The notes beneath the pieces were generated by a model. The model worked only from the letters and a program-made list of their open reading frames with translations, made no database searches and was not told where the DNA came from. Source: a virus (lineage: Duplodnaviria > Caudoviricetes). From it: DNA of 64,000 nt. Below are positions 23,537-64,000 of this stretch, in pieces. The first letter of the stretch is position 1, and every line of letters begins with the position of its first letter. The position numbers and the translations under genes are program-made. The stretch is taken from the IMG/VR virus record IMGVR_UViG_3300031994_002623, positions 28,681 to 92,680 of that record, one strand, 5' to 3'.

Positions 23537-25213
23537 ATGAACACAAGAACAAGAACACAGACAACGAATAGGTTCGTTGAGACAGTAGGGTTTAGAGCAA
23601 CAACCCTTACAGAGAATGGAGCAGTTACTAACGTTACTACTGGTAGCCAGATAGTTGACCAGTTCGGTAAGGCAGGTAACTTCAGAGGTCGTCCTATCGC
23701 AGATGTGTTCACTGACCAGGCAAGAATCTGGGAGGAGAACGCTGAGGCAGCTCTCCGTTTCCCATTCTACCTTCGTATGGTTACACGTAAGGTGAAGGTT
23801 AACAAGGAGAACGAGACTGACAAGGTTCAGAACGGACAGGGTGCTCGTGATGAGTCATTCAAGCGTTTTCTTTGGATTGCCAAGGAACACCCATCAACCT
23901 TCTACAACAACGTATGGGCATTGCCTATTGTTGGTTCATGGAAGGACATTTGGACAATGTTGTTCTACGACATTCACGAGGGTACGAATGCGCTGAATCA
24001 TGAGGCGATGTTCGAAATCATTGCACAGGGTTTGCTTTGCGATACCCATGTTGACCTGGTGAAGAAATATATGCCTCGTATCAAGAGCGAGAGTAAGTGC
24101 AAGACTGAGTGGACTAAGACAACTAACAAGTTGGCTAAGGAGTTCGCTAACTTCATGAACCTGTCCTACAAGGAGTACAACAAGCTGAAGACCAGCGGTA
24201 ACGCACATGACTTCCAGAAGCTTATCTGTTCACGTAACTACGGTGAGTTGAACTGGAATCATATCCCAGGTCGTGCTCTGAATCTACTTGTAACCAGCAA
24301 GTTCCTTTCAAACCACAATTTGAAGGACGCTTACACCAAGTGGATAATGGGTAAGCCTGTGGCAAAGTTTACTGGATACGTCTTCGAGCTTGCCAAGAAG
24401 CTTCGTGATGCTGGTGTCTACAGAGGATATGCTCACAAGGCATTGTCTCCAGAGGTCAAGCACACTATCGATGCTCAGTTTATGGGCTTGGTAGAACAGG
24501 CACGTAAAAACGGTAAGATTACAGGTAACGTATGGTGCGCACTTGATACCAGCGGTTCAATGAGTACACGTGTGAATGGTCTGAATGACGTATCTTGTAG
24601 TGACGTTGCCAACTCTTTGGCAATCTTCTTCAGTGAACTTAACACTGGAGCGTTCCACAACAAGATTATCATGTTCGACAACAAGTCATACCCATACGAC
24701 CTCAAGGGTGATTCATTCTGCGACAAGGTGATGACACTACCAGGTGTTCCTTGTGGAGGTACTAACTTCCAGTCAATCGTAGAGGAGATTGTGAAGATTC
24801 GTAAGGAGCATCCAGAGATTCCTCTGGAGGACTACCCAAAGACCATCCTTGTGGTATCAGATATGCAGTTCAATCCTGCTGGTGGTGGCTACTATTCACG
24901 TCAGCGTACTGAGCCAACCAACTACGAGTACTCAAAGAAGACACTCAAGACTGTCTTCCCAGATGAGTTCGTTGAGAGTATGTCGTTCATCTGGTGGGAC
25001 GTAGCTGCAAGATACGGTAACACTCACTACGAGGGTGACTGCAACACTCCAGGTTGTTACTTCTTCTCTGGCTTCGATGGTAGTATTATATCGATGCTGC
25101 TTAACGAAGAGGCGGTGAAGGATGAGGTAACTGGTGAGGTTCGTAAGCCTACAGCCGAGGAGCTGGTAATGAAGGCTCTGTCACAGGAGATTCTGAATTA
25201 CATCAAGCTCTGA
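23537..25213 (+). CDS. DUF2828-type helical + VWA protein (Ro60/TROVE-like RNA-binding candidate)
   Basis: TENGA, GSWKD, KYMPR; MIDAS LDTSGSM, GGTNF, VSDMQF; own promoter and terminator. Confidence 0.75.
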   Translation: MNTRTRTQTTNRFVETVGFRATTLTENGAVTNVTTGSQIVDQFGKAGNFRGRPIADVFTDQARIWEENAEAALRFPFYLRMVTRKVKVNKENETDKVQNGQGARDESFKRFLWIAKEHPSTFYNNVWALPIVGSWKDIWTMLFYDIHEGTNALNHEAMFEIIAQGLLCDTHVDLVKKYMPRIKSESKCKTEWTKTTNKLAKEFANFMNLSYKEYNKLKTSGNAHDFQKLICSRNYGELNWNHIPGRALNLLVTSKFLSNHNLKDAYTKWIMGKPVAKFTGYVFELAKKLRDAGVYRGYAHKALSPEVKHTIDAQFMGLVEQARKNGKITGNVWCALDTSGSMSTRVNGLNDVSCSDVANSLAIFFSELNTGAFHNKIIMFDNKSYPYDLKGDSFCDKVMTLPGVPCGGTNFQSIVEEIVKIRKEHPEIPLEDYPKTILVVSDMQFNPAGGGYYSRQRTEPTNYEYSKKTLKTVFPDEFVESMSFIWWDVAARYGNTHYEGDCNTPGCYFFSGFDGSIISMLLNEEAVKDEVTGEVRKPTAEELVMKALSQEILNYIKL

Positions 25214-30936: not shown

Positions 30937-32301
30937 ATGTTAGAATTAAAAGGACAGTATTGTAAGGACTTAAAGGTCTTTACCGACAACGTTGAGGAGA
31001 CTGCGTTGTCAACGATATATCGCATTGCTGATTGTATTGCGTTCAAGGACAGGAAAATACGAATCATGCCAGACTGTCACGATGGTAAGGGCATTGTAGT
31101 TGGCTTCTCATGCCCTGTTAATATAGATAAAGACCACGTGAACCCAGAGCACGTTGGATGTGATATCGGGTGTACTATCTCTGCTACCTTCTTCGATAAG
31201 CCTATTATCGACGATAATATGAAGGAGTTCGAGCACAAGATTCGCAAGGAGATACCTTTCGGTTTCTCAATTAACGACAAGTCTAAGATTGAATGGAAGC
31301 GTATCACCAAGGCTGTTAACGCAGCTATGGACAGGTTATGCTCATTGTATCCTCAGTTCTCAGAATATGCTATTCGTTTTGGAAACGAAATGGATTTGGA
31401 GAAGTGGTGTACCAGGGTACGTATTGACTATGGTGACTTCATTAAGGCTATCGGCTCTGTAGGTGGTGGTAACCATTTCCTTGAGTATGATGTCAACGAG
31501 GAGTTGGGTAAGTATTGCGTATGCGTACACTGCGGCTCACGTAAGCTTGGTTTGGCTGTATTCAATTACTGGAACAAGATTGCCAAGAGCATGACTGTTT
31601 CCAGGGAAGAAATGAAGATGCTTGAGAATAACGTCAAGGCTAAGAACACCGATAAATCAAAGATGAAGGAAGAGCTAAAGGCTGCAAGGGAGGAATATCT
31701 CTCTCACAGGATTCCAGGTTACCTCTCTGGAGAACACCTTATGGGATACTTAGTAGATGTACTCATTGCCCAGACCTATGCACAGCTGAATCACGAGGTA
31801 ATTAACGAGCAGGTCGTTGAGATATATAGGAAGATGTCTGGAGGTGGAAAACCAGTTGACTTCATCAGTACTACGCACAACTATATTGATTACGACTTCA
31901 AGGCGTTGATGGGTGCTCCAAACATGATGATTCGTAAGGGTTCTATCCGTGCTTACGAGGGTGAGAGGGTGATTATTCCATTCAACATGAGGGATGGTAT
32001 CTCTATCTGCACAGGTAAGTCAAATCCAGACTGGAACTTTACAGCACCACACGGTGCTGGACGCATTATGTCACGTTCAAAGGCTTTCGAGAACCTGGAT
32101 GCTGAGGAGTTTAAGAAACAGATGGCTGATGCTGGCATCTATACCACCACTGCCGATGAGAAGACTCTTGATGAAGCACCAGATGCTTATAAGCCAATGG
32201 CAGAAATTGTAAAGCTTATTGAGCCAACTGTTAACATCGAGTTCTTCATGAAGCCAAAGATGAATATCAAGGCACAGGAAGATAAGATTAAGTTCTTTTA
32301 A
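30937..32301 (+). CDS. rtcB: RtcB RNA 2',3'-cyclic phosphate/3'-P:5'-OH ligase
   Basis: MPDCH, VGCDIGC, GGGNHFLE, HCGSR, HNY, RKG, HGAGR..SR, DEAP.AYK. Confidence 0.96.
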   Translation: MLELKGQYCKDLKVFTDNVEETALSTIYRIADCIAFKDRKIRIMPDCHDGKGIVVGFSCPVNIDKDHVNPEHVGCDIGCTISATFFDKPIIDDNMKEFEHKIRKEIPFGFSINDKSKIEWKRITKAVNAAMDRLCSLYPQFSEYAIRFGNEMDLEKWCTRVRIDYGDFIKAIGSVGGGNHFLEYDVNEELGKYCVCVHCGSRKLGLAVFNYWNKIAKSMTVSREEMKMLENNVKAKNTDKSKMKEELKAAREEYLSHRIPGYLSGEHLMGYLVDVLIAQTYAQLNHEVINEQVVEIYRKMSGGGKPVDFISTTHNYIDYDFKALMGAPNMMIRKGSIRAYEGERVIIPFNMRDGISICTGKSNPDWNFTAPHGAGRIMSRSKAFENLDAEEFKKQMADAGIYTTTADEKTLDEAPDAYKPMAEIVKLIEPTVNIEFFMKPKMNIKAQEDKIKFF

Positions 32302-40215: not shown

Positions 40216-40309
40216 CGGAGGGTAACGGCAGCAGACTGTAAATCTGCCCTGCTTTAACAAATTGTCGTACTGGTCTCGCAGTAGGGGGGTTCGAATCCCT
40301 CCCCTCCGA
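40216..40309 (+). tRNA. tRNA-Tyr(GTA) with an internally permuted D-arm
   Basis: CGGAGGG/CCCTCCG; GCAGA-CTGTAAA-TCTGC; ACGGCA (40225) pairs with TGTCGT (40263) in the variable-arm loop. Confidence 0.7.
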
Positions 40310-40421
40310 CAAAGTGCGCATCATAGTAATATGAGTCTTTAGGCAACCTCTCTAAGAGCAGCATAAGACTATAGAGGTAATAATGCAAGAATTCTAAAAT
40401 ATTGGTTATGGTGGTACAAAT

Positions 40422-54750: not shown

Positions 54751-55455
54751 ATGATATTAGCATTTGATACATATTATTACGATGGATATTCATATACGGT
54801 ATGTGCTGCATTTGACAACTGGGCTTCAGAGAAAGCCAAGTTTCACGTAGCCAACAGAAGAAAGGGTATTGACGCAGAGTACGTTCCAGGAGAATTGTAT
54901 AAGCGTGAGTTGCCTTGTATAATGCAGTGTCTTTCACGTGTCAACGTAAATAATGTGACATCAATCATAGTTGATGGTTTCTCATGGGTTGTTGATGAAG
55001 ACGGTAAGCAAGTTCCTGGTCTTGGTAAGAGACTACAGGATGCAATACTGGACAAATATGGGCATTACCTCTCAGTGATTGGCGTTGCTAAGAATCCATA
55101 CCATAAAGAGATACCATTCTGTCATAAGGTATTCAGAGGTGAATCAAGTAAGCCACTGTATGTAACATGTACTGAGAATGAGTTTGCAGAGCACTATGCT
55201 GTTGAGATAAAACTCATGCATGGAAAATACAGGATACCAGACATTCTGAAAGAGGTAGACACCAGAACAAGGTCATACTGTGAGGAAATTGAGAACGATT
55301 GTAGTTATATTGACAGACTGATTAGAGAAAACAACAAACTTGCAAGCAAGGAAGAGGAGGATAAGTCACACGACCCTTCCATTGATTTCAGTGCGTTTGA
55401 TAAGTGGGTTGCTGAGACAGAGAAAAATGGTTTTGTTTACAGGGATGTGACATAA
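54751..55455 (+). CDS. Endonuclease V family protein
   Basis: D.YY, YVPGELYKRELP, IIVDG, IGVAK, PLYVT, RIP. Confidence 0.85.
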   Translation: MILAFDTYYYDGYSYTVCAAFDNWASEKAKFHVANRRKGIDAEYVPGELYKRELPCIMQCLSRVNVNNVTSIIVDGFSWVVDEDGKQVPGLGKRLQDAILDKYGHYLSVIGVAKNPYHKEIPFCHKVFRGESSKPLYVTCTENEFAEHYAVEIKLMHGKYRIPDILKEVDTRTRSYCEEIENDCSYIDRLIRENNKLASKEEEDKSHDPSIDFSAFDKWVAETEKNGFVYRDVT

Positions 55456-55463
55456 TCATATAT

Positions 55464-55539
55464 TCGTCGGTAAATGAAAGTGGTCTAATCTGCTAGACTC
55501 CAAATCTAGTGTACGTGTGTTCGAATCGCACCCGACGAG
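55464..55539 (+). tRNA. tRNA-Trp(CCA)
   Basis: CTAGA-CTCCAAA-TCTAG. Confidence 0.8.
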
Positions 55540-55557
55540 CTTAAAGAAAAAAGTGTT

Positions 55558-55770
55558 ATGGATATAGGTTGTATTGCAAGTGCCATCTACCTAGTTGTAG
55601 GTTTGTTGTTAGCCCGAAAGTGGTTCAACGACGAGTATAAGGATGAATACGATGAACTCAAGAAAAACGGAGAAGTTCAGCCAGCAATGGCATGTATTTT
55701 ACTTATGGTAATGGCTATATTCTGGCCAATTAAACTAACGTACAATCTAATTAAGTATGGGGAAATATGA
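55558..55770 (+). CDS. Small membrane protein
   Basis: Two hydrophobic helices; FWP motif. Confidence 0.5.
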   Translation: MDIGCIASAIYLVVGLLLARKWFNDEYKDEYDELKKNGEVQPAMACILLMVMAIFWPIKLTYNLIKYGEI

Positions 55771-56160
55771 ATTTACCAAAATCGTTTATAAGGAACAGAG
55801 TATTTGAGATAGGGATTGCAATTGTAAGAAAACCTAAAGAGAAACTCATTGAGTTCTTCCATAAGAGGGTGGACTGGTGGCTAAACATATATGGCATTAG
55901 AATCAAGCAATACAGTTGCTACCTTATGTGGAAGAAAGTTTGTTTTTAATGAAATATGACAGGAAATAAATTACTTCAACTGGTGATGCCCTATACGTAT
56001 AGACAAGGGTTCACTTATCGGACGAAAGACCATAACTCACATCCTGGAAACAAGAAGCACAAGAGTCTTGGTCATTGCGGACACGTTATCAAAAAGGCTG
56101 GTCAAACCATGCTTAGGAGAACGTTAAAGAGAGAAATGTTAAACCAAATAGAGAAAGATA

Positions 56161-56613
56161 ATGAGTAAGATAGCATTATTCCCAGGAAGTTTTGACCCAT
56201 TCCATAAGGGTCATAGGTATGTGGTAAATGCAGCATTACAACTGTTTGACGAGGTATATGTCTGTGTTGCGGTGAATCCACAGAAGAAAGGCTACTTTGA
56301 GCCTAATGCACGAGTAAGTATGATTGAGACAATCTTTCGTGAAGAGCCTCGTGTGAAGGTTATCAGTACTGATGGACTGGTATTCAAGAAAGCCCAGGAG
56401 ATTGGTGCTTCATTCATCATCAAGGGTGCAAGAAACGGCAGTGATTTTACTGATGAAGTAGCACAAGCCGATATAAACTGGAATATTGGGAAGATGCCTA
56501 CAATAGTGATTCCAACACCTAATACATTATCCTATATAAGTAGTACTGCAATAAGGAGTATACTTCAGACTTGTAAGGGTGATTCTAGCCTAGTAAAAGA
56601 CCTAGTGTGTTAA
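56161..56613 (+). CDS. coaD: Phosphopantetheine adenylyltransferase
   Basis: FPGSFDPFHKGH, NPQKK, KGARN..DF..E, ISST. Confidence 0.88.
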   Translation: MSKIALFPGSFDPFHKGHRYVVNAALQLFDEVYVCVAVNPQKKGYFEPNARVSMIETIFREEPRVKVISTDGLVFKKAQEIGASFIIKGARNGSDFTDEVAQADINWNIGKMPTIVIPTPNTLSYISSTAIRSILQTCKGDSSLVKDLVC

Positions 56614-57939
56614 CAAAATAAAAAAATTAGCTGAAAATTTGGAATTACGAAAAAAAATATATATCTTTGCACCGTGATTCAGAAACAGTAAGTTTAACGA
56701 ATAAATTAACGACAATGATTGAAGGAGCAATTTTAGTGGCAATCGGTTGGTTTGGTCACAAGTATAAAGACCCCATCGTCAAGACAGTCAAGAACTGGAT
56801 GGGTAAGTAAACCGACAAAGGATATGGCATCGAGCCTGTCGGTGAAACATATGTTGGATTAAAATACACTTCGTAAACCGTGAGTGAGAATATAGTTTAG
56901 GTGAAAACATCTGTTGACAGGAAGTTCATGCCAAAGTTATAAGTGGGAGGAGAGAACCGTAATAGTAGGTTGGAAACAACCTTCGGGTCTCCTTGAAAGG
57001 CCGAGTCACACTTTCAATAACAAACGGTCCCAATTTTTTAAGAGATTATCAGTCAAGCGGCTTTAAGCCCCGTACCATGCATAGGTTAGTATGGCGTATA
57101 TTGGTCTTAACAACGTTAGTGCAAGACAAGTGCTCGATGGCTTGTAAATAATTATGGGTACAGAGTGCGAAGCATGCTTGAGAAGTTTAATAGGTATAAA
57201 CGCAGGCAGAGGCTGACAACAGCCGAACTGAGACAGAAGGTTCAAATCCTCTCCGCAAGCACAATACAGAAATATATGACACTGACTTCGGAACGTGTAT
57301 GAAAGCTGTAGAAAAGGTTCACATAGAGTGTCGCAAGGCATTGAAAGGGTTACGTAACCTATGTGAATCCATAGATGACACTTCGGAAGAGACGGAGTAC
57401 TTTACTCGTGGTCTAGTAACGAGTCGGATTTTCCACTCCAAGTTAGGGAGAAACTGGGGGATGTATGAGAAAACATACTTTACAACATTCTCACGCAAGT
57501 AAGACTAGTATCTATATGGTTGAACTTGCATCATCCTTGAAAGGCGAATGGGTAACGCACCAGCACACAAGGCTTCGGATGTAATCTGCGGCAGTGGTTG
57601 GAAAAAGTAGGTTCGAATCCTCACTGCAAGGGCAACGGTAGTCTATACATTTCGGACTTCGGGAAGAAGTTGATGGCTATCTAAGGGTGGGTTTCTAGAG
57701 TAAAACATAAGGCGGTACATCCCACTACTCGAATGGCACTGTGGAATAGACATGGCGTGACCCAAGCTACGAGGAAGACTGGGAGACGGTTTACGATTTT
57801 TATAATACTAAAAAAATTGGAGGCAACTTTTAGCCCTCATTTGGCTACTGGTTGTGACACGTGGTTATAATTCCACCCTAAGAAGGTAAGGCAAGCTTGT
57901 CCAATGACAGGCAGTTTCGAGTGATACCACGTATTTTAT

Positions 57940-58015
57940 AGGACATTAGCTCAGCTGGTTCAGAGCGTCTGGTTTACACCCAGAAGGTTCGTGGGTTCGA
58001 ATCCCTCATGTCCTA
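57940..58015 (+). tRNA. tRNA-Val(TAC)
   Basis: TCTGG-TTTACAC-CCAGA. Confidence 0.88.
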
Positions 58016-58034
58016 CAACGGGGAGACATCCCCA

Positions 58035-58099
58035 GGGCAGTTAGTTCATGTGGTAGAACATCGGATGCGAAGAATGGGATTCAAACGCCTTACTGTCCA
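58035..58099 (+). pseudogene. Degenerate tRNA-like gene (truncated anticodon arm)
   Basis: GGGCAGT/ACTGTCC, normal D arm, TCG-GATG-CGA. Confidence 0.45.
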
Positions 58100-58103
58100 C
58101 AAA

Positions 58104-58167
58104 GGAAGCATACAGCAAAATTCTATAGGACTCAACTTGTAAGTGATAATTCTAGAAAACTGCTTCC
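58104..58167 (+). ncRNA. CAGCA-stem (Y-like) RNA 9, minimal
   Basis: GGAAGCA-TACAGCAA...TGCTTCC. Confidence 0.7.
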
Positions 58168-58198
58168 GATTTTAAAAGAAATATATAAAGGAAAATAT

Positions 58199-58759
58199 AT
58201 GGCAGAAAAAGTAGGTGTAATTATAGCACGTTTACAGCCTATACATAATGGGCATCTGGAACTGATACGCCAAGCACTTAATGAGAACGACAAGGTTCTT
58301 GTACTGGTAGGTTCAGCTGACAAGCTTAATAAGAGGAATCCTATTCCTATCAATATGAGAATGGAAATGGCATGTGATGCAATAGTCACTACCTTCAGTG
58401 AAGATAAGGACAGGATAAACGTGCAGCCTCTAGATGACCTTACTGATGAGTCTGATAATTCTCATGACTGGGGATTCTATCTCTACAGTAAAATTGTAGG
58501 ACTTACAAGGTCTCCAGAGTTTACCATCTATTATTCAGATGGATTCGAAATCATTATGCTCTGGTTTCCACCATTCATCACAAGAAACTATGTGTCATTT
58601 AAGTTGAATGCCAGGGGAACGATTGCTGAGAATATCTCAGCGACTTCAGTCAGACATATGATTATGAATAAAGATGATGAAGCACTTAAGAAATTCGTGC
58701 CAGATAGCGTCTTCGAAAAAAGAGACATATTGAGACAGTTCATAGGTGCTTATCAATAA
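58199..58759 (+). CDS. NMN adenylyltransferase-like (NadM-type) nucleotidyltransferase
   Basis: ARLQPIHNGH, VGSA, RNP, ISAT.VR. Confidence 0.8.
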   Translation: MAEKVGVIIARLQPIHNGHLELIRQALNENDKVLVLVGSADKLNKRNPIPINMRMEMACDAIVTTFSEDKDRINVQPLDDLTDESDNSHDWGFYLYSKIVGLTRSPEFTIYYSDGFEIIMLWFPPFITRNYVSFKLNARGTIAENISATSVRHMIMNKDDEALKKFVPDSVFEKRDILRQFIGAYQ

Positions 58760-58767
58760 AAGATAGT

Positions 58768-59010
58768 ATGAATTACGATGTAGGACAACCATTCATTGAG
58801 GTTACGTTCCCAACTAGGGGTACTAAAAAGGCTCTGTTTAGGCGTGAGGATATTCTCAGAGTTACAGAAACAATAACTCCAGATGGAGACCCTCTTGTGA
58901 CTATCTTTGTAAAGCCTTTGAGTAGTAATTGCTGCAAAGAATATCTAGAGTGGTATTTCGACGGTACTATGGAGAAATTTAGGGAGTCTACAAAGACCGT
59001 GTATATGTAG
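58768..59010 (+). CDS. Hypothetical protein
   Basis: ORF track. Confidence 0.45.
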   Translation: MNYDVGQPFIEVTFPTRGTKKALFRREDILRVTETITPDGDPLVTIFVKPLSSNCCKEYLEWYFDGTMEKFRESTKTVYM

Positions 59011-59028
59011 TACGTTGGTGATATTAAT

Positions 59029-59108
59029 CGGGGTGTATCTCCTCTCGCTGATACCGAGTAGAAAGAGTAGTAGGTTGCACGCAGGTTCGACTCCTGCCGC
59101 CCCGACCA
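59029..59108 (+). tRNA. tRNA-Ile(GAT) with an internally permuted D-arm and encoded CCA
   Basis: CGGGGTG/CGCCCCG-ACCA; CTCG-CTGATAC-CGAG; GAGTAGTAGGTT after the anticodon arm. Confidence 0.7.
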
Positions 59109-59111
59109 ATT

Positions 59112-59225
59112 TGAAGGATACCAGAGGAGAACTAGGGCAACCTAGATGTAGACAAATGGGCATTACTTTCGTGAGTAATGTGCTCTTAGGAGCTTCGGTG
59201 TGTGCAAATCCACCTCCTTCAACCA
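59112..59225 (+). ncRNA. Giant-D-loop tRNA-like RNA, copy A (encoded CCA)
   Basis: TGAAGGA/TCCTTCA-ACCA; GAGGAGAA-hairpin-ATGTAGACAAA. Confidence 0.8.
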
Positions 59226-59284
59226 GTTTAAAAGGAGTTCTTTGATATTTTTACATATTAGGATATATTTATCTTACAACAAAT

Positions 59285-59656
59285 GGGCTTGAAACGGAAT
59301 AGACAGCTATACATTTGGTAGGAGACAAGCAGTGGGCATACACTAGAAATAGCGAAAAAATATAAATGGCGAGATAGATTTCTCTCCTGCTTACGAGTAC
59401 GCTGTAGCAGCTTAAAGTGAGCCGAGAGACCAGGCTCTTAGGAACAGAACATCCTGGTAACTTGTTTCTTGGTGTCATGAAACCAAGTGGTGGCTATGAC
59501 CGATTGACATCCAGTCAATCCCCCAATGTTTTCCTCGTTTTCTCAAAATGAGGTGGTCCCAAAGACGGTGGCGCAAGCCATTGCACATTTTGGAAAGCTT
59601 GTATAATCTCTTATGGGATGGTAGTTTGGACCGCAGTTCGACTCTGCGCAAGTCCA
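59285..59656 (+). ncRNA. ssrA: tmRNA; tag (A)GEIDFSPAYEYAVAA*
   Basis: GGGCTTG/CAAGTCC-A acceptor with G3:U; T-loop; tag ORF 59368-59415. Confidence 0.9.
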
Positions 59657-59680
59657 CGTAAGAATCTGATAATCAGATAG

Positions 59681-60256
59681 TTACACGATAAGATTAGATG
59701 TATAAACAGATATTTCTTTTAGGAATTTTCTGACCTCTATATCTGATTTAGTACTTTTCATTAGGTTAATAGGTGTTGATATAAACTGTATATTACCCTT
59801 TACATACCCCAATGAGGAATCAATCCTATCCAAAGAGGCTCTGTGAAAAAAATCAATTTCATTCACATTAGAATTTTCTGGTAGGATTAGGCTCAAACCT
59901 GTATAAGGACAGATACCATTCTGTTTTTCCCAGGTTTCTTTTAAATCATCTAGGGTTATATCAACATCTTTGAAACGTCTTGTTACGCACCTGTAGGTAT
60001 ATCTAAATGGAGTATATTCATCCCTATGATTTCTGCAAATGTGTTTTAAATGTTCCAACATTTTGTCTGAAGCTGGCTTATATGGCATTTCCTTTCGGAC
60101 TTTAGACGTTCCTTTGCTAACGCATTCACGACAGCAGTAAAGATGTCTACCTTTTGATTTAATTCGTGTGACTTCTTTTAGTGGACGTTCAAATTCTTTT
60201 CCACAGTTATCGCAGATAACTTTCACTAATTTACCTTGATTTTTATATTTATTCAT
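59681..60256 (-). CDS. HNH-type endonuclease with a zinc finger
   Basis: CDNCGKEF...YCCRECV; GICPYTG...SLDRIDSSLGYVKGN...N. Confidence 0.8.
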   Translation of the reverse strand: MNKYKNQGKLVKVICDNCGKEFERPLKEVTRIKSKGRHLYCCRECVSKGTSKVRKEMPYKPASDKMLEHLKHICRNHRDEYTPFRYTYRCVTRRFKDVDITLDDLKETWEKQNGICPYTGLSLILPENSNVNEIDFFHRASLDRIDSSLGYVKGNIQFISTPINLMKSTKSDIEVRKFLKEISVYTSNLIV

Positions 60257-60429
60257 AATGTATATGTATTTTATTATAAATATCTGGTAAGGTGGAGAAA
60301 TACGGAGTTTAATAGGTTTTCTTTCCGTTATTGTCCACTTGAAAAAAAAAAATGAAAAATTTCTTCTGAAAAATTTGGATTTTACGAAAAAAATATATAT
60401 CTTTGCACCGTCAATTAAAAACAATAATT

Positions 60430-60681
60430 ATGGAGAAGATATTAGAAAGTGAATTCAGAAACAACCTGTATAAGTCTCTAGTAGACGCAGGATACGAGAA
60501 GAAAGAGGCTCAGAAAATTGTAGGTGTGAAGTATCACGGAGCACTGAAGGCTGACCTTAAGCAAAGGCTGGAAACACTATCAGCCCTGGTAGAGGACGAA
60601 ACTTATGATGGTTTAGTCTTCAACGGAGAAGAACTTAATGGTCTAGTAGATGAGCTTAAAAAGGTCAAAGGTGTAATTTAA
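60430..60681 (+). CDS. Hypothetical protein
   Basis: Follows the promoter at 60398. Confidence 0.5.
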   Translation: MEKILESEFRNNLYKSLVDAGYEKKEAQKIVGVKYHGALKADLKQRLETLSALVEDETYDGLVFNGEELNGLVDELKKVKGVI

Positions 60682-60847
60682 TAAAAAAAAGTTCCTAAAA
60701 AATTTGGAATTACGAAAAAAAATATATATCTTTGCACCGTGAAAATATAAACATGTTGATAACAAGTACCACTGTTAAGCTAAGACTGCTGAAATGATTG
60801 CAGAGTGTTGATGAAGCTTCATACGGATGAACAACATGTTTCAATAT

Positions 60848-60931
60848 AGTGGGATAGTGTAATGGTAACATGCTAGGCTCATAACCTAGAGACATTAATT
60901 GCTAGCGTTGGTTCGAATCCAACTCCCGCTA
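60848..60931 (+). tRNA. tRNA-Met(CAT) with a long variable region
   Basis: CTAGG-CTCATAA-CCTAG. Confidence 0.8.
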
Positions 60932-60936
60932 CTCTT

Positions 60937-61046
60937 TGAGAGATACCAGAGGAGAACAGTCGCAAGGCTGATGTAGACAAATGGGCAGTACGGTAAGTAT
61001 TGTGTTACTTCGGTAACTTCGTGGTGTGCAAATCCCACTCTCTCAA
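60937..61046 (+). ncRNA. Giant-D-loop tRNA-like RNA, copy B
   Basis: TGAGAGA/TCTCTCA; same conserved motifs as copy A. Confidence 0.8.
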
Positions 61047-61053
61047 CTATATT

Positions 61054-61165
61054 TGGTAGATACGAGAGGAGAACTGGAATAATCCAGATGTAGACAAATC
61101 GGCATTAAGTTCGTGCTTAATGTGCCTCTTAGGAGGCTTCGGTAGTGCAAATCTACCTCTACCAA
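61054..61165 (+). ncRNA. Giant-D-loop tRNA-like RNA, copy C
   Basis: TGGTAGA/TCTACCA; D-stem CGA/TCG covariation. Confidence 0.8.
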
Positions 61166-61357
61166 CAAATTGGTAAAGGGATAAAGCGGGACTAAGGTAG
61201 TCTAAAGCCCTTGAATCATAGAAAGCGAACGATACCCAAAGGTGTAAAAAGTGTTCCATGTTGAACTACCATAGGAAGGAGCGTATACGTGCTGACGTGG
61301 AAGTGTACAGCCACAACTGAGCGACTCGCAAGCTTTCGTGAACCAATAAACTTCTTT

Positions 61358-61467
61358 TGAAGGATACCAGAGGAGAACAGTCGCAAGGCTGATGTAGACA
61401 AATGGGCAACATGGTAAGTGTTGTGCTCTTTCGAGAGCTTCGGTGTGTGCAAATCCACCTCCTTCAA
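61358..61467 (+). ncRNA. Giant-D-loop tRNA-like RNA, copy D
   Basis: TGAAGGA/TCCTTCA. Confidence 0.8.
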
Positions 61468-61662
61468 CATTGAATCTCGCAGCTAAAACAGTAGTGATGA
61501 GGCTAGTGTTTACTAGAACAATGCGCAAAATGTCTAGGAAGCTGTGGGTAGGTCTTCAAGTTAGTCTAGAATGATTTGTTGATTCGAAAAATCCTCATCA
61601 ACAATACGTTAATTCTTAACGCAAAGAGTTTTTGCGGTGGACAAAGTAAAAAAACCACCTTT

Positions 61663-61774
61663 TGGTAAGTACCAGAGGAGAACTAGGGAAACCTAGATGT
61701 AGACAAATGGGCATCAAGTTCGTGCTTGATGTGTCGCTAAGGCGGCTTCAGTAGTGCAAATCTACTCTTACCAA
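61663..61774 (+). ncRNA. Giant-D-loop tRNA-like RNA, copy E
   Basis: TGGTAAG/CTTACCA. Confidence 0.8.
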
Positions 61775-61789
61775 CTACTTCTCACGTTA

Positions 61790-62648
61790 TAGGCTTCGGC
61801 TGAAAACGAGGAAGATGGCTAGCTTTCGTAGCCATAAGGATAATCCAGTGATGGGATAAATGTGATGGGTTTAATCAACTACTCCGTCGCAGATGTTTGG
61901 AAACAGGCATTTCACAGAAAAGGACAAGGTGCGGTATCTTGTTCTGGTAACACAGTGCAGGGTGCTATCGAGGCTAAAAGGCTTCGGTTGAGTGGAAACA
62001 CAATAGAGTCCGAGTCGAATTCGATGCAATACTCACCAGGTGGCGTGTTGGATTCAGTTAATTTCTCAGCTTCACAGTGAATTAATAAGCTGAAAGCAGT
62101 GTGAGGGGCTTGCCCCAAGCATACGAGGTTTTAATAGCAGAGTAGACTTGTGGTGAGTCTGGTGCAGGATGGCGATTTAGTGGGCTGTGCTCAAAAGGCA
62201 CGGATGCTAAGGGTCGCACCTCGTCATCCAGTAGTTGGGAGTTGTAGCTCAAGTGGTAGAGCAGCCGACTTGAAATCAGCGTGTTATAGGTTCGATTCCT
62301 ATCGATTCAGTTAAAATAATTTGAATTAAAGCAAAAGTGTGCGACACTGGGCAGATAAAATGCACTTATCGCTCCTGCAATATGGAGGCATCGGGGACTC
62401 GCAAGGAATCCGATGAACGAGTAAGAGTAGTCATCTGAGTCAGCTGGAGGCATCCAGTGAGTCTGCAAGAGCTTGGTGGTGAAATGAATGTTATGATTCT
62501 GTACCGAAAGGTTTAAACCAGTAAGAGTTTGGTGGTTTTCGCAAAACCATCGTGCATGGTGTCTACGGCTATCGTAAGGTAGCGTGTGAACAACAACGTC
62601 CAACCGTTGTGAAAGGGCATCTACAATAAGACAACGTTCTCAGTCTTT
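61790..62648 (+). ncRNA. Large ornate RNA (GOLLD-like) with an embedded tRNA-like gene
   Basis: ~860 nt with no credible CDS; many GNRA/UUCG hairpins; long-range AATCCAGT/GTTGGATT pairing; GOLLD identity from recall only. Confidence 0.5.
62238..62310 (+). tRNA. tRNA with a TGA (Ser) anticodon but a short variable loop
   Basis: Canonical D/T arms; loop CTTGAAA; weak acceptor stem. Confidence 0.6.
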
Positions 62649-62658
62649 TGTATTTTAT

Positions 62659-62779
62659 GGGGTTATAGTTTAGCGGTTAAAATAATTTGTTACGAGCTAG
62701 TACTATACGCACTGACTTCGGGAAGTGTTGACGTGCTAGTAAATGATAAACGACGTTGGTTCGAATCCTTCTAGCCCTG
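62659..62779 (+). tRNA. tRNA-like gene whose anticodon arm is replaced by a long hairpin
   Basis: GGGGTTA/TAGCCCT, D and T arms; CTAGTAC/GTGCTAG extension. Confidence 0.55.
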
Positions 62780-62782
62780 CAA

Positions 62783-62910
62783 ATTGAGATTTACATAGTA
62801 GAAAAGCGAAGCACGTGTGAATCGGAGGTAACCAGTTCTAGTAGAAGCCTTCATCGGTGGGCTGGGCATAAATGAGGAGATACTACTATGTAGCTTGCAA
62901 GAATCTCAAT
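62783..62910 (+). ncRNA. 128-nt palindromic-bulge RNA C
   Basis: ATTGAGATT/AATCTCAAT, TACATAGTAG/CTACTATGTA, CTTGCAAG bulge. Confidence 0.55.
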
Positions 62911-62944
62911 CTTTTTAGGTAAGAGAATCTAATTTTTACAATAT

Positions 62945-63271
62945 ATGAAAGATTTTACTTACAGCGGTTTTGAGAACCAGGAAACATGTAATCACCTCAA
63001 AGGAGGAGAAACATGTAAGGTGACTGGTATTGGAAATTCCATGACACCTATTTTGAAATCAAGGCAACCAGTTATATGTGAGCCTGTGACTGATGAGACC
63101 ACACTAAAGAAGAGAGACATAGTTCTCTGTAAGGTGAGAGGACATCATTACTTACACTTGATACACGCCATACGGAACGATAAAGAGTTCTTAATTGGTA
63201 ATAATCATGGTCACATGAATGGCTGGGTTGGCAGAAACCAGATTTACGGTAAAGTCGTAGAAATTCTTTAA
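62945..63271 (+). CDS. S24/S26 peptidase-like protein
   Basis: GNSMTP...DIVLCKV.G..YLH...GNN.G..NGW. Confidence 0.6.
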   Translation: MKDFTYSGFENQETCNHLKGGETCKVTGIGNSMTPILKSRQPVICEPVTDETTLKKRDIVLCKVRGHHYLHLIHAIRNDKEFLIGNNHGHMNGWVGRNQIYGKVVEIL

Positions 63272-63412
63272 GGTCAAATGGTTGTATGAGGGTTCGATTC
63301 CCTTGTGACTGGCAAATGAAACAGATGGATGGATGGTCACTAAACAATCTGTTTTCATTGTATGCTCTTCATGGTATGCAGTTTGTTAGTTCTGTGCAAA
63401 AACTAACACTTT

Positions 63413-63484
63413 GGGGTTTGTAGTGTAATGGCTAGCACAAGTCCTTTGCAAGGATTTAGAGGGGTTCGAATCCCACATTCTCCA
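63413..63484 (+). tRNA. tRNA-Ala(TGC), near-duplicate of 49609 with a mismatched acceptor
   Basis: Nearly identical body; 3' strand CATTCTCC gives two U-U mismatches. Confidence 0.7.
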
Positions 63485-63485
63485 C

Positions 63486-63559
63486 AGTGACAGAGTGAAA
63501 CGGCTTACACGCTAGGCTCATAACCTAGAAACACCAGGTTCGACTCCTGGGTGTCGCTA
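63486..63559 (+). tRNA. tRNA-Met(CAT)
   Basis: CTAGG-CTCATAA-CCTAG. Confidence 0.78.
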
Positions 63560-63594
63560 CAAAACCACTCTGCTGCAAAAGCAGAAAAAACCAA

Positions 63595-63661
63595 GGAAGC
63601 TAACAGCAAGTCTCCTTTAGGCGGTAGAAATGCCGCTGTCACATAAACAGGAATGGCTTCC
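63595..63661 (+). ncRNA. CAGCA-stem (Y-like) RNA 10, GNRA-hairpin cargo
   Basis: GGAAGCT-AACAGCAA...GGCTTCC; GCGGTA-GAAA-TGCCGC. Confidence 0.7.
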
Positions 63662-63843
63662 GATTTTTAATAACAATTTAAATTTTAAGTATTATGAAGA
63701 AAAACAGTTTTTGGTAGGTTTCTAACCAGTTCTGGTAGCTGAAACTGATTCGTGGTCCCGATGTATGTTTTTAATTCTGAGAGGGAAAATAGTGAAGTAT
63801 TAACTAAATTATTAATAACAATCAAATTAAAAAACATACAACA

Positions 63844-64000
63844 ATGGAAAAGAAAATTTTTACAAATACAGAGACCACAAAAGAGCAGTATCTTAAGTTT
63901 AAGGAATTCATTAAGTCAGACGCAGAGAAAGACCATTCTGACTATGTAGCTTATTACATCTTCAAGCACAGGATAACTGGCGAGGAGCGTGACAAATACT
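63844..64000 (+). CDS. Partial hypothetical protein (runs off the window)
   Basis: ATG with an open frame to the window end. Confidence 0.45.
   Translation, partial: MEKKIFTNTETTKEQYLKFKEFIKSDAEKDHSDYVAYYIFKHRITGEERDKY

Follow-up and report, generated by a model that had tools for sequence, protein, structure and literature searches.

A stretch of 64,000 nucleotides of phage DNA (IMG/VR record IMGVR_UViG_3300031994_002623), called the window below, was found to encode five copies (A to E) of a tRNA-shaped small RNA; it makes up the right-hand part of a 92.7-kb phage contig, which represents a partial genome. Sequence comparison indicates that the phage lineage duplicated its own class II tRNA-Tyr gene and that the copies became a phage-specific RNA, and we are confident that they derive from tRNA-Tyr and do not decode. 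Taken as a whole, the evidence is best explained, although tentatively, by a tRNA-Tyr look-alike that is recognised by a tyrosyl-tRNA synthetase (TyrRS), probably tyrosylated, excluded from the ribosome and employed as a carrier of activated tyrosine. The canonical and intermediate relatives of the family, the covariation between positions 18 and 55, the universal loss of U33 and the link to TyrRS are new. A preliminary description, made from the letters of the window, had missed the derivation from tRNA-Tyr, the GUA triplet in two of the five copies and the phage's own TyrRS. No description of such an RNA was found in the literature searched for it.

Fold and conservation of the RNA family

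The five copies listed in the preliminary description are all present where it had placed them (Table 1). They are about 112 nt long, and their motif, GAGGAGAA-N8-30-ATGTAGACAAA, occurs five times in the window as against 0.00 times in 100 dinucleotide shuffles. RNAalifold folded the five copies into a common structure of 37 base pairs, 22 of them with changes on both sides, and individual folding of each copy reproduces it. The 5' half consists of an acceptor stem of 7-8 bp, U8 and A9, and a 3-bp D stem whose loop contains a hairpin; the 3' half consists of a long stem at the anticodon position, a variable arm and a T arm with the loop UGCAAAU. The common acceptor stem with discriminator A73, the CCA encoded in copy A (to 59225), the D stem CCA/TGG (CGA/TCG in copy C), the hairpin in the D loop, the variable arm and the TGCAAAT loop had thus been described correctly. 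Two kinds of arm occupy the anticodon position. In copies A, C and E the stem has 7 bp and ends in the 6-nt loop UUCGUG (type 1), and copies B and D have a canonical 5-bp stem (plus G26.U44) with the 7-nt loop YGGUAAG, that is, a GUA anticodon with A37 and G33 (type 2). Among the 48 distinct sequences of the main family, 41 are of type 1, with UAUGUG and UUUGUG as rare loop variants, and seven of type 2 (YGGUAAR, with A37 and G or C at position 33).

In these 48 sequences 99.8% of the cells are paired, and only 35-40% when the partner is slid by 1-3 columns; double changes occur at 27 of the 37 pairs. The acceptor and T helices (helices 1 and 6) are supported by covariation, and so are four of the five pairs of the variable arm (helix 5), which is extended to 5-6 bp, capped by stable tetraloops and freely covarying in sequence. 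Within the three pairs of the D stem, the CGA/UCG of copy C is a compensated version of the CCA/UGG of the other copies (pair 13/77 is C-G in 34 sequences and G-C in 13). Invariant in all 48 sequences are U1-A72, G2-C71, A73, C74, U8 and A9, the D-loop module including GAGGAGAA, a UUC junction, and the G-U within the anticodon-position loop. The T arm has a 5-bp stem and a 7-nt loop with U54, C56 and A58, and reads UGCAAAU in 44 of the 48. Copy C contains UACGAGAGGA, a 10-nt identity to the sarcin-ricin loop of rRNA; we treat it as a coincidence because the C and G involved form covarying D-stem pairs.

No family of Rfam 15 matches any of the five copies, either at the gathering threshold or at E ≤ 10, and this includes the tRNA family RF00005 (gathering threshold 29 bits); ARAGORN made no call on 47 intact sequences. 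Because the family is invisible to tRNA finders and to Rfam, it is unannotated in the phage contigs examined. The covariance model and Rfam search proposed in the preliminary description have been carried through, and the model (R1), which found relatives in phage contigs, can now be used for annotation.

Derivation from a class II tRNA-Tyr

Two related genomes, G016 and G020, carry a canonical 82-nt tRNA-Tyr(GUA) with U1-A72, G2-C71, the D stem CCA/UGG, the D loop GAGUGGUCAAA, G26, a variable arm followed by UUC, and A73-C74, which are the same as the invariant features of the family. The canonical tRNA-Tyr of the related jumbo phages (L173:1503-1584; RF00005) further shares with the family the 7-bp length of the acceptor stem, U8, the D-loop ends GAG..CAAA, the great length of the variable arm, and a 5-bp T stem with a 7-nt loop; with type 2 copies it also shares G34, U35, A36 and A37. 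A long variable arm, a 3-bp D stem and A73, the hallmarks of a bacterial class II tRNA and expected of a class II tRNA-Tyr, are all found in the family. It differs from the canonical tRNA in a D-loop insertion of about 25 nt, in having A18.G55, and in the replacement of U33 by G or C or of the whole loop by a longer stem with UUCGUG; it also differs in escaping both the Rfam tRNA model and ARAGORN.

When the insertion is left out, copy D matches the canonical phage tRNA-Tyr at the unpaired segments CCAGAG, CAAAUGGGC, GUAA, GCUUCGG and CAAC. After removal of the insertion in silico together with a G55U change, ARAGORN calls type 2 copies as tRNA-Tyr(gta) and type 1 copies as tRNAs with 2- or 4-nt anticodons. 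The sole match of R1 in five Bacteroidota genomes is tRNA-Tyr(GUA), at 30.2 bits. Global identities are 64-70% to canonical Tyr references and 16-67% to other isotypes, which is noisy and only a weak pointer. Intermediate forms exist as well: arrays in G016 and G017 consist of genes of 104-106 nt with a short D-loop hairpin (GAC-GCAA-GUC), G18G19, the canonical T loop UUCGAAU and 7-nt loops YGGUAAR. The relatives show the conversion of a tRNA in stages, from the canonical gene through a form with G33 and a small D-loop hairpin to an elaborate module with a compensated elbow and, at last, loss of the anticodon loop.

Loss of U33 or of the anticodon loop

U33 makes the U-turn that is required for binding to the ribosomal A site. 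The canonical phage tRNA-Tyr has it (loop CUGUAAA), whereas in all 12 copies with a 7-nt loop, from the main family and the diverged arrays together, position 33 is G (11 copies) or C (one copy) and never U. The GUA anticodon itself is kept in copies B and D, in seven of the 48 main-family sequences and in four of the five diverged copies (GUG in the fifth); type 1 retains only its G-U. On either side of UUCGUG the bases form a covarying Watson-Crick pair (G-C in 35 sequences, U-A in six), and so the type 1 stem is 2 bp too long for an anticodon arm. A 5-bp anticodon stem with a 7-nt loop that combines U33 with a purine at position 37 is therefore absent from the family. The preliminary description had TTCGTG right in three copies; its 5-nt loop GGTAA on a stem of 7-8 bp in copies B and D is better drawn as a 5-bp stem with the 7-nt loop YGGUAAG. 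Its statement that there is no canonical anticodon loop remains true even of these two copies, since U33 is missing. Its view of a selected tRNA mimic is borne out; the RNA is structured, and most copies are unable to decode in the normal way.

The D-loop module and the tRNA elbow

The insertion of about 25 nt in the D loop is structured, a conserved purine-rich module with a GNRA-capped hairpin; K-turn and bulged-G readings of it, judged by eye, were set aside. Because the D-loop ends match those of the canonical phage tRNA-Tyr and of E. coli tRNA-Tyr, we place it between D-loop positions 15 and 18, a naturally length-variable region beside the elbow; the match to E. coli, which extends to the UUC junction, was verified against annotated genomes. 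The 3' part of the module is predicted to contact the T loop. Sequences with AUGUAGACAAA in the module have G55 in 47 of 48 cases, whereas the T loop UUCAAAU is found in all four copies with AUGUGGACAAA and in no others. Positions 18 and 55 are A and G in 47 sequences, G and U in four and mixed in none, while G19 and C56 are retained; the diverged copies with GG in the D loop likewise carry U55. These counts are per sequence and not of independent events, since the copies recombine. That the two states are never mixed argues that the 18-55 contact, and hence the L-shape, is preserved, with A18.G55 replacing G18.Psi55.

The same phages encode an 82-83-nt class-II-like tRNA-Met(CAU) (L012:901-983, L009:2778-2860, L016:2618-2699 and L172:1501-1583) with a 3-bp D stem, the D loop AAGUAGUCAAA, a variable arm followed by UUC, the T loop UGCAAAU (A18/G55) and a normal anticodon loop, CUCAUAA. 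Its sequence suggests that it, too, branched off from the tRNA-Tyr lineage.

Tyrosyl-tRNA synthetase and the decoding tRNA-Tyr

The phage encodes a TyrRS of the bacterial type, with an S4-like, arm-binding C-terminal domain and with intact HIGH (HLGH) and KMSKS (KFGKS) motifs (Table 1); its sequence makes it a candidate partner of the family. An orthologue was found in five of the five records tested and in G016 and G017, that is, in all seven complete or near-complete genomes that bear the family; its absence from five family-bearing fragments of 17-45% completeness is uninformative. Three large aminoacyl-tRNA synthetase families that serve twelve other amino acids (PF00587, PF00133 and PF00152) were absent from five TyrRS-bearing genomes, in a search whose controls were positive in 14 of 14 genomes. 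Bacterial TyrRS recognises A73, G34, U35 and the variable arm, as established in the E. coli and Thermus systems. Pfam found no tRNA-related enzyme except RtcB among ten open reading frames (ORFs) around the TyrRS gene. The TyrRS region is flanked by a Ro60-like protein (DUF2828 + DUF7788; phrog_850 'RNA-binding protein', 177 bits) and an RtcB ligase (192.9 bits), at 23537-25213 and 30937-32301 of the window.

ARAGORN lists no tRNA-Tyr in the phage, and we considered whether the family copies are its only one. This was rejected, for a decoding tRNA-Tyr is present at 40216-40310; its D region departs from the cloverleaf, its anticodon arm is GCAGA-CUGUAAA-UCUGC, and it has C1-G72 and A73-C74. 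It lies in the Glu..Tyr..Pro slot, in which the relatives have the canonical tRNA-Tyr.

Distribution and expression

A motif scan of IMG/VR followed by R1 gave 52 strong matches (99-136 bits) on 25 phage contigs. A scan with a variant motif added three copies, and five diverged copies were found in two further genomes, G016 and G017. Chance matches, as judged by R1, made up 17 of the 43 IMG/VR motif loci; chance also accounts for 28 of the 31 loci in a scan with ATGTBGACAAA and three of the five in a scan with TACCAAAGAA. Among 185,579 GTDB species genomes, in which only sites with the exact motif were examined, there were 72 loci, about the number expected by chance, and none matched R1. A blastn search of positions 55000-62000 against 50,697 phage records returned nothing beyond tRNA-sized and endonuclease matches.

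The carriers all fall into a single group of rumen jumbo phages; their complete genomes measure 295-412 kb, and the samples came from the guts of sheep and cattle. The word TAnnTTTG in their promoters and the Bacteroidota-like TyrRS lead us to infer Bacteroidota as hosts. Each complete genome has a tandem array of two to five copies, often with spacers of only 2-3 nt, and one solo copy more than 100 kb away with its own promoter and transcription unit, which gives three to six copies per genome (five on the 92.7-kb contig). The order within the solo unit is promoter, leader hairpins, family copy, a second tRNA-like RNA and terminator. This second RNA also has no anticodon and lies directly 3' of the solo copy (L001:5380-5520(-), and also in L002, L018, L022, L033, L036 and L041); it reads UGAUAGG-UA-AUCGCAGUAAUG ... 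GGUUCGAUUCC ... CCUAUCA-AC, with a variable middle.

In metatranscriptome contigs of four studies, coverage is about 2-180x over the copies, 0-13x over the endonuclease ORF that lies between them and in the hundreds over the tmRNA. As the RNA data consist of assembled contigs, RNA ends, CCA tails and strand are not readable from them; this coverage gives rough support to expression of the copies, not to the discrete RNAs of ~110 nt of which the preliminary description had spoken. Every tRNA gene examined on the contig of the window (G000) ends in the discriminator and an encoded C74; the full CCA is encoded in only a few, and T at -1 is found in most. Because the family shares these flanks, it is presumably processed by RNase P and the CCA-adding enzyme. 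Several of the G000 tRNAs begin with C1-G72 (Cys, the odd Ile and the odd Tyr), and many have extra arms of 10-15 nt (Glu 89 nt, Lys 85, Thr 85, Met 85, Arg 90, Cys 83). A tRNA with the anticodon CUA, an amber suppressor called 'Pyl' by ARAGORN, is found in relatives (L005:8838-8923, L009:1412-1497, L013:10424-10498, L025:1352-1443, L037:6327-6412 and L042:2301-2377), and its sequence hints at TAG recoding in this phage group.

Possible roles of the RNA

The fold, the origin, the distribution, the elbow covariation and the co-occurrence with TyrRS are shown by the sequences; from here on we infer processing, charging and downstream use. With T at -1, U1, A73 and an encoded C74, the RNA would mature as the phage tRNAs do, its CCA being completed by the CCA-adding enzyme, and would fold into the tRNA L-shape with A18.G55 holding the elbow. 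Selection would have disabled decoding, either by loss of U33 or by conversion of the anticodon loop into a 7-bp stem with the loop UNNGUG, while the marks read by TyrRS (A73, the long variable arm and G-U at the anticodon position) and the first two acceptor pairs of the canonical tRNA-Tyr would have been retained. The phage TyrRS would recognise and probably tyrosylate an RNA that the ribosome cannot use; the charged RNA would then serve solely to supply activated tyrosine to a reaction outside the ribosome, and its user would take hold of it by the D-loop module. Such a carrier accounts for the identity marks that are kept, for the consistent loss of U33, for the module gained and for a TyrRS of the phage's own. 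It seems to us nearly as probable as not that the RNA is a TyrRS substrate or ligand. That it donates tyrosine outside the ribosome is distinctly more doubtful, and a complete private tyrosylation system, in which the phage TyrRS charges decode-disabled derivatives of tRNA-Tyr and a phage enzyme transfers the tyrosine to DNA, protein or envelope, is unlikely.

Several points weigh against the carrier. FemAB, Leu_Phe_trans and LPG_synthase_C, known families of aminoacyl-tRNA-dependent transferases, are absent from the seven family-bearing genomes, which leaves the charged RNA with no evident user. Neither aminoacylation nor CCA addition nor discrete ends were seen, in RNA data that consist of assembled contigs. 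The TyrRS identity rules come from E. coli and Thermus and may not be those of this enzyme, which moreover has an obvious other client in the decoding tRNA-Tyr of the phage; and since all carriers are within one phage clade, the co-occurrence of family and TyrRS may be plain phylogeny. Type 1 copies lack A36, A37 and the geometry of a 7-nt loop, changes that may weaken recognition by TyrRS. The UGC T loop occurs also in the class-II-like tRNA-Met(CAU), whose anticodon loop is normal, and so G55 alone is no marker of exclusion from the ribosome.

The main rival, rather unlikely in our judgement, is that abundant non-decoding look-alikes act as a decoy or sponge, which is bound or cut by a nuclease directed against tRNA-Tyr and thereby spares the decoder, with no need of charging. 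Septu and the PtuAB of retron-Eco7 cut tRNA-Tyr in the variable arm, and phages evade them by expressing tRNA-Tyr genes or multiplying these in tandem, for which the authors suggest 'decoy or supplement' (PMC11555353; PMC13096335). The tandem copies plus a separately promoted solo copy in each genome would suit such a role, as would the lengthened, tetraloop-capped variable arm with its freely covarying sequence, the HNH/EndoVII-type endonuclease gene that adjoins the array, and the restructured decoding tRNA-Tyr, RtcB and TyrRS in the same genome. However, a decoy gains nothing from the loss of U33, as an extra tRNA-Tyr that still worked would soak up the nuclease and aid translation at once, and neither the invariant D-loop module nor the invariant U1-A72, G2-C71 and A73 are explained. 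Nor is a tRNA-Tyr nuclease known from the presumed Bacteroidota host, which counts against the decoy, and no cleavage products were seen in the RNA contigs, which would not reveal them. It is very improbable that the copies are real decoders, type 2 being working tRNA-Tyr isoacceptors with an enlarged D loop and type 1 reading in an unusual way, such as a quadruplet in an 8-nt loop N-U-UCGU-G-N. Type 2 does have the 5-bp stem, the 7-nt loop, GUA and A37, ARAGORN is able to read type 1 with the 4-nt anticodon tcgt, and the apparently normal tRNA-Met has the same A18.G55 elbow; but U33 is missing from 12 of 12 copies with a 7-nt loop, the bases flanking UUCGUG pair and make the stem 2 bp too long, and a separate decoding tRNA-Tyr occupies the conserved slot. 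Just as improbable is a ribosome-binding mimic, as raised in the preliminary description, in which GAGGAG pairs with the anti-Shine-Dalgarno (SD) end of 16S rRNA. Copy A adjoins the tmRNA and GAGGAGAA is unchanged in all 48 sequences, but the SD-like word is not conserved, since the diverged subfamily reads AAGAAG or AAGAAA at the same place, and it is buried within the structured module; the pairing thus found no support. Bacteroidota, the presumed hosts, make little use of SD pairing, which likewise counts against it; the broader proposal of a protein- or ribosome-binding platform is conjectural.

A role tied to the neighbouring GOLLD-like RNA is improbable, though less so than these two. 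The copies might supply RNase P and RNase Z sites that free the 5' end of GOLLD, or might dock on or in its cage; GOLLD forms a 14-mer cage of unknown function that often carries tRNAs (10.1101/2024.12.08.627333). A GOLLD-like RNA follows the last family copy in 12 loci, in at least six of them after about 14-15 nt, and is the most abundant RNA of the region in the metatranscriptome contigs (up to 27,511x). Its 3' domain contains, within GUGCAUGGUGUCUACG, a GUCUAC complementary to the GUAGAC of the D-loop module in 12 of 12 loci (at 62561-62566 in the window and at the same place in L005, L006, L009, L012, L013, L014, L016, L025, L037, L040 and L042). This complementarity is only 6 nt and may mean nothing, as it lies inside GOLLD's own conserved core, and no conserved CACGAA, UUACC or CUCCUC, the complements of the family loops and of GAGGAG, was found in the GOLLD-like RNA. 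The copies are also not part of GOLLD (RF02032), for the match begins past copy E; every complete genome has a solo copy distant from GOLLD in its own transcription unit; the diverged arrays have no GOLLD nearby (within ~1.5 kb in G016 and 5 kb in G017); and plain tRNAs would be equally good processing signals. Whatever the role of the family, its fixed place before a highly expressed GOLLD-like RNA may help to explain the function of GOLLD. In short, we prefer the tyrosine carrier.

Genomic surroundings

The window contains about 40 tRNA genes, the tmRNA and the GOLLD-like RNA, and the features discussed here are collected in Table 1. As had been described, the copies flank the tmRNA, which is a conserved neighbour of the family arrays: copy A ends 60 nt before it, and copies B-E begin 1.3 kb past it. 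Copy A spans 59112-59223 from U1 to C74 (A73 at 59222; C74-C75-A76 encoded at 59223-59225) and lies between the tmRNA and an odd tRNA-Ile(GAU) at 59029-59108. The latter, directly 5' of copy A, has C1-G72, an encoded CCA and a non-standard D region, and scores 28.7 bits, slightly below the Rfam tRNA threshold; relatives have a normal tRNA-Ile at that place. The endonuclease gene, which sits between the tmRNA and the array B-E, recalls the SegB-driven amplification of tRNA-Tyr in T6.

The promoter-like site lies about 110 nt upstream of the array and of the tRNA-Met (60848-60932) that precedes it, and has a duplicate near 60374-60404; copy B begins 4 nt downstream of this tRNA. TAnnTTTG stands likewise upstream of the solo copies, and we take TTTG/TAnnTTTG to be the Bacteroides promoter consensus. 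The leader hairpin of copy E is also found upstream of solo copies in related phages. Copy D looks like a mosaic of A and B produced by recombination, because in the alignment its acceptor and T arms are identical to those of A while its D hairpin and loop type are identical to those of B. The spacers C/D (61167-61355, closed by UUGGU..ACCAA) and D/E (61469-61632) have few ORFs and many hairpins and are covered by RNA contigs. The tRNA embedded in the GOLLD-like RNA varies among relatives (Leu, Asn or Ser).

Table 1. Copies of the RNA family and associated features, in window coordinates
Feature	Position	Strand	Characteristics and basis
Copy A	59112..59225	+	type 1, loop UUCGUG; R1 129.5 bits; fold z = -3.37
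Copy B	60937..61047	+	type 2, 5-bp stem, 7-nt loop CGGUAAG (anticodon GUA with G33); R1 121.4 bits
Copy C	61054..61166	+	type 1; D stem CGA/UCG; R1 132.4 bits
Copy D	61358..61468	+	type 2, loop UGGUAAG; R1 126.6 bits
Copy E	61663..61775	+	type 1; R1 128.6 bits; 14 nt upstream of GOLLD-like RNA (nhmmer map)
Leader hairpin GGUGG-ACAAAGUAAAAAAA-CCACC	61636..61659	+	directly 5' of copy E; flank comparison of 10 loci
Promoter-like site, Bacteroidota type	60703..60734	+	TTTG, 20 nt, TATCTTTG; read from sequence
tmRNA	59285..59659	+	ARAGORN; RF00023 53 bits; synteny
HNH / endonuclease VII-type (homing-like) endonuclease gene	59681-60424	-	phrog_3322 73.8 bits; phrog_1035 66 bits
GOLLD-like RNA with embedded tRNA-Ser(UGA) at 62238-62310	61790..62649	+	RF02032 70 bits, E 4e-17, below gathering threshold of 150; nhmmer
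Tyrosyl-tRNA synthetase, 427 aa	26215..27498	+	PF00579 271.6 bits; PF22421; PF01479; PDB 6n0w 413.8 bits
Decoding tRNA-Tyr	40216..40310	+	weak R1 match, 21.9 bits; sequence; slot comparison

Comparison with known RNAs

YrlA (RF02553), which is bound by Ro/Rsr, has a tRNA-like module as the family does, and the phage likewise has a Ro60-like protein and RtcB. However, the 5' and 3' ends of YrlA form the Ro-binding stem at the anticodon side, whereas those of the family form a normal acceptor stem, and YrlA gave no match at E ≤ 10 within 58000-64000; a weak YrlA-like match exists in the relative L012 (5320-5427, 36 bits against a gathering threshold of 69). Phage T4 makes the stable RNAs species 1 and 2 (rnaD and rnaC), which lie in its tRNA cluster. 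By their description alone, they are similar to the family in being small, stable RNAs among tRNA genes with tRNA-like 3' parts that are processed together with tRNAs. The 3' end of brome mosaic virus RNA is a tyrosine-accepting tRNA-like structure and is thus another viral, non-decoding mimic of tRNA-Tyr for TyrRS and the CCA-adding enzyme. That structure is, however, the 3'-terminal part of a plant virus genome, with a pseudoknotted acceptor arm and no homology to a cloverleaf, whereas the family consists of free-standing genes derived from a real tRNA.

Septu and retron PtuAB have lately shown that anti-phage immunity can be aimed at tRNA-Tyr, and this phage clade invests heavily in that tRNA, with a restructured decoder, a TyrRS and three to six copies of the mimic. 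The family is thus a testable case of either a viral non-ribosomal aminoacyl carrier or an RNA decoy against tRNA-directed defence. For the former, one precedent is the non-proteogenic tRNA-Gly of Staphylococcus, which donates glycine to the pentaglycine bridges of the cell wall and has TGC or TGT for TTC in the T loop (PMC7826273). Like the family, these tRNAs are diverted paralogues in several copies with a UGC T loop that lacks Psi55; G19 is changed in them, and their mechanism parallels the one favoured here. Unlike the family, they are cellular, carry glycine, have a normal anticodon loop and can still decode, lack a D-loop insertion and have a known user, FemXAB. Phage Mu offers a second precedent, since its Mom protein modifies DNA using Gly-tRNA (PMC13219725). 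If the RNA described here is indeed a carrier of tyrosine, it would be the equivalent, in these phages, of the cell-wall tRNA-Gly of Staphylococcus and of the Gly-tRNA used by Mom.

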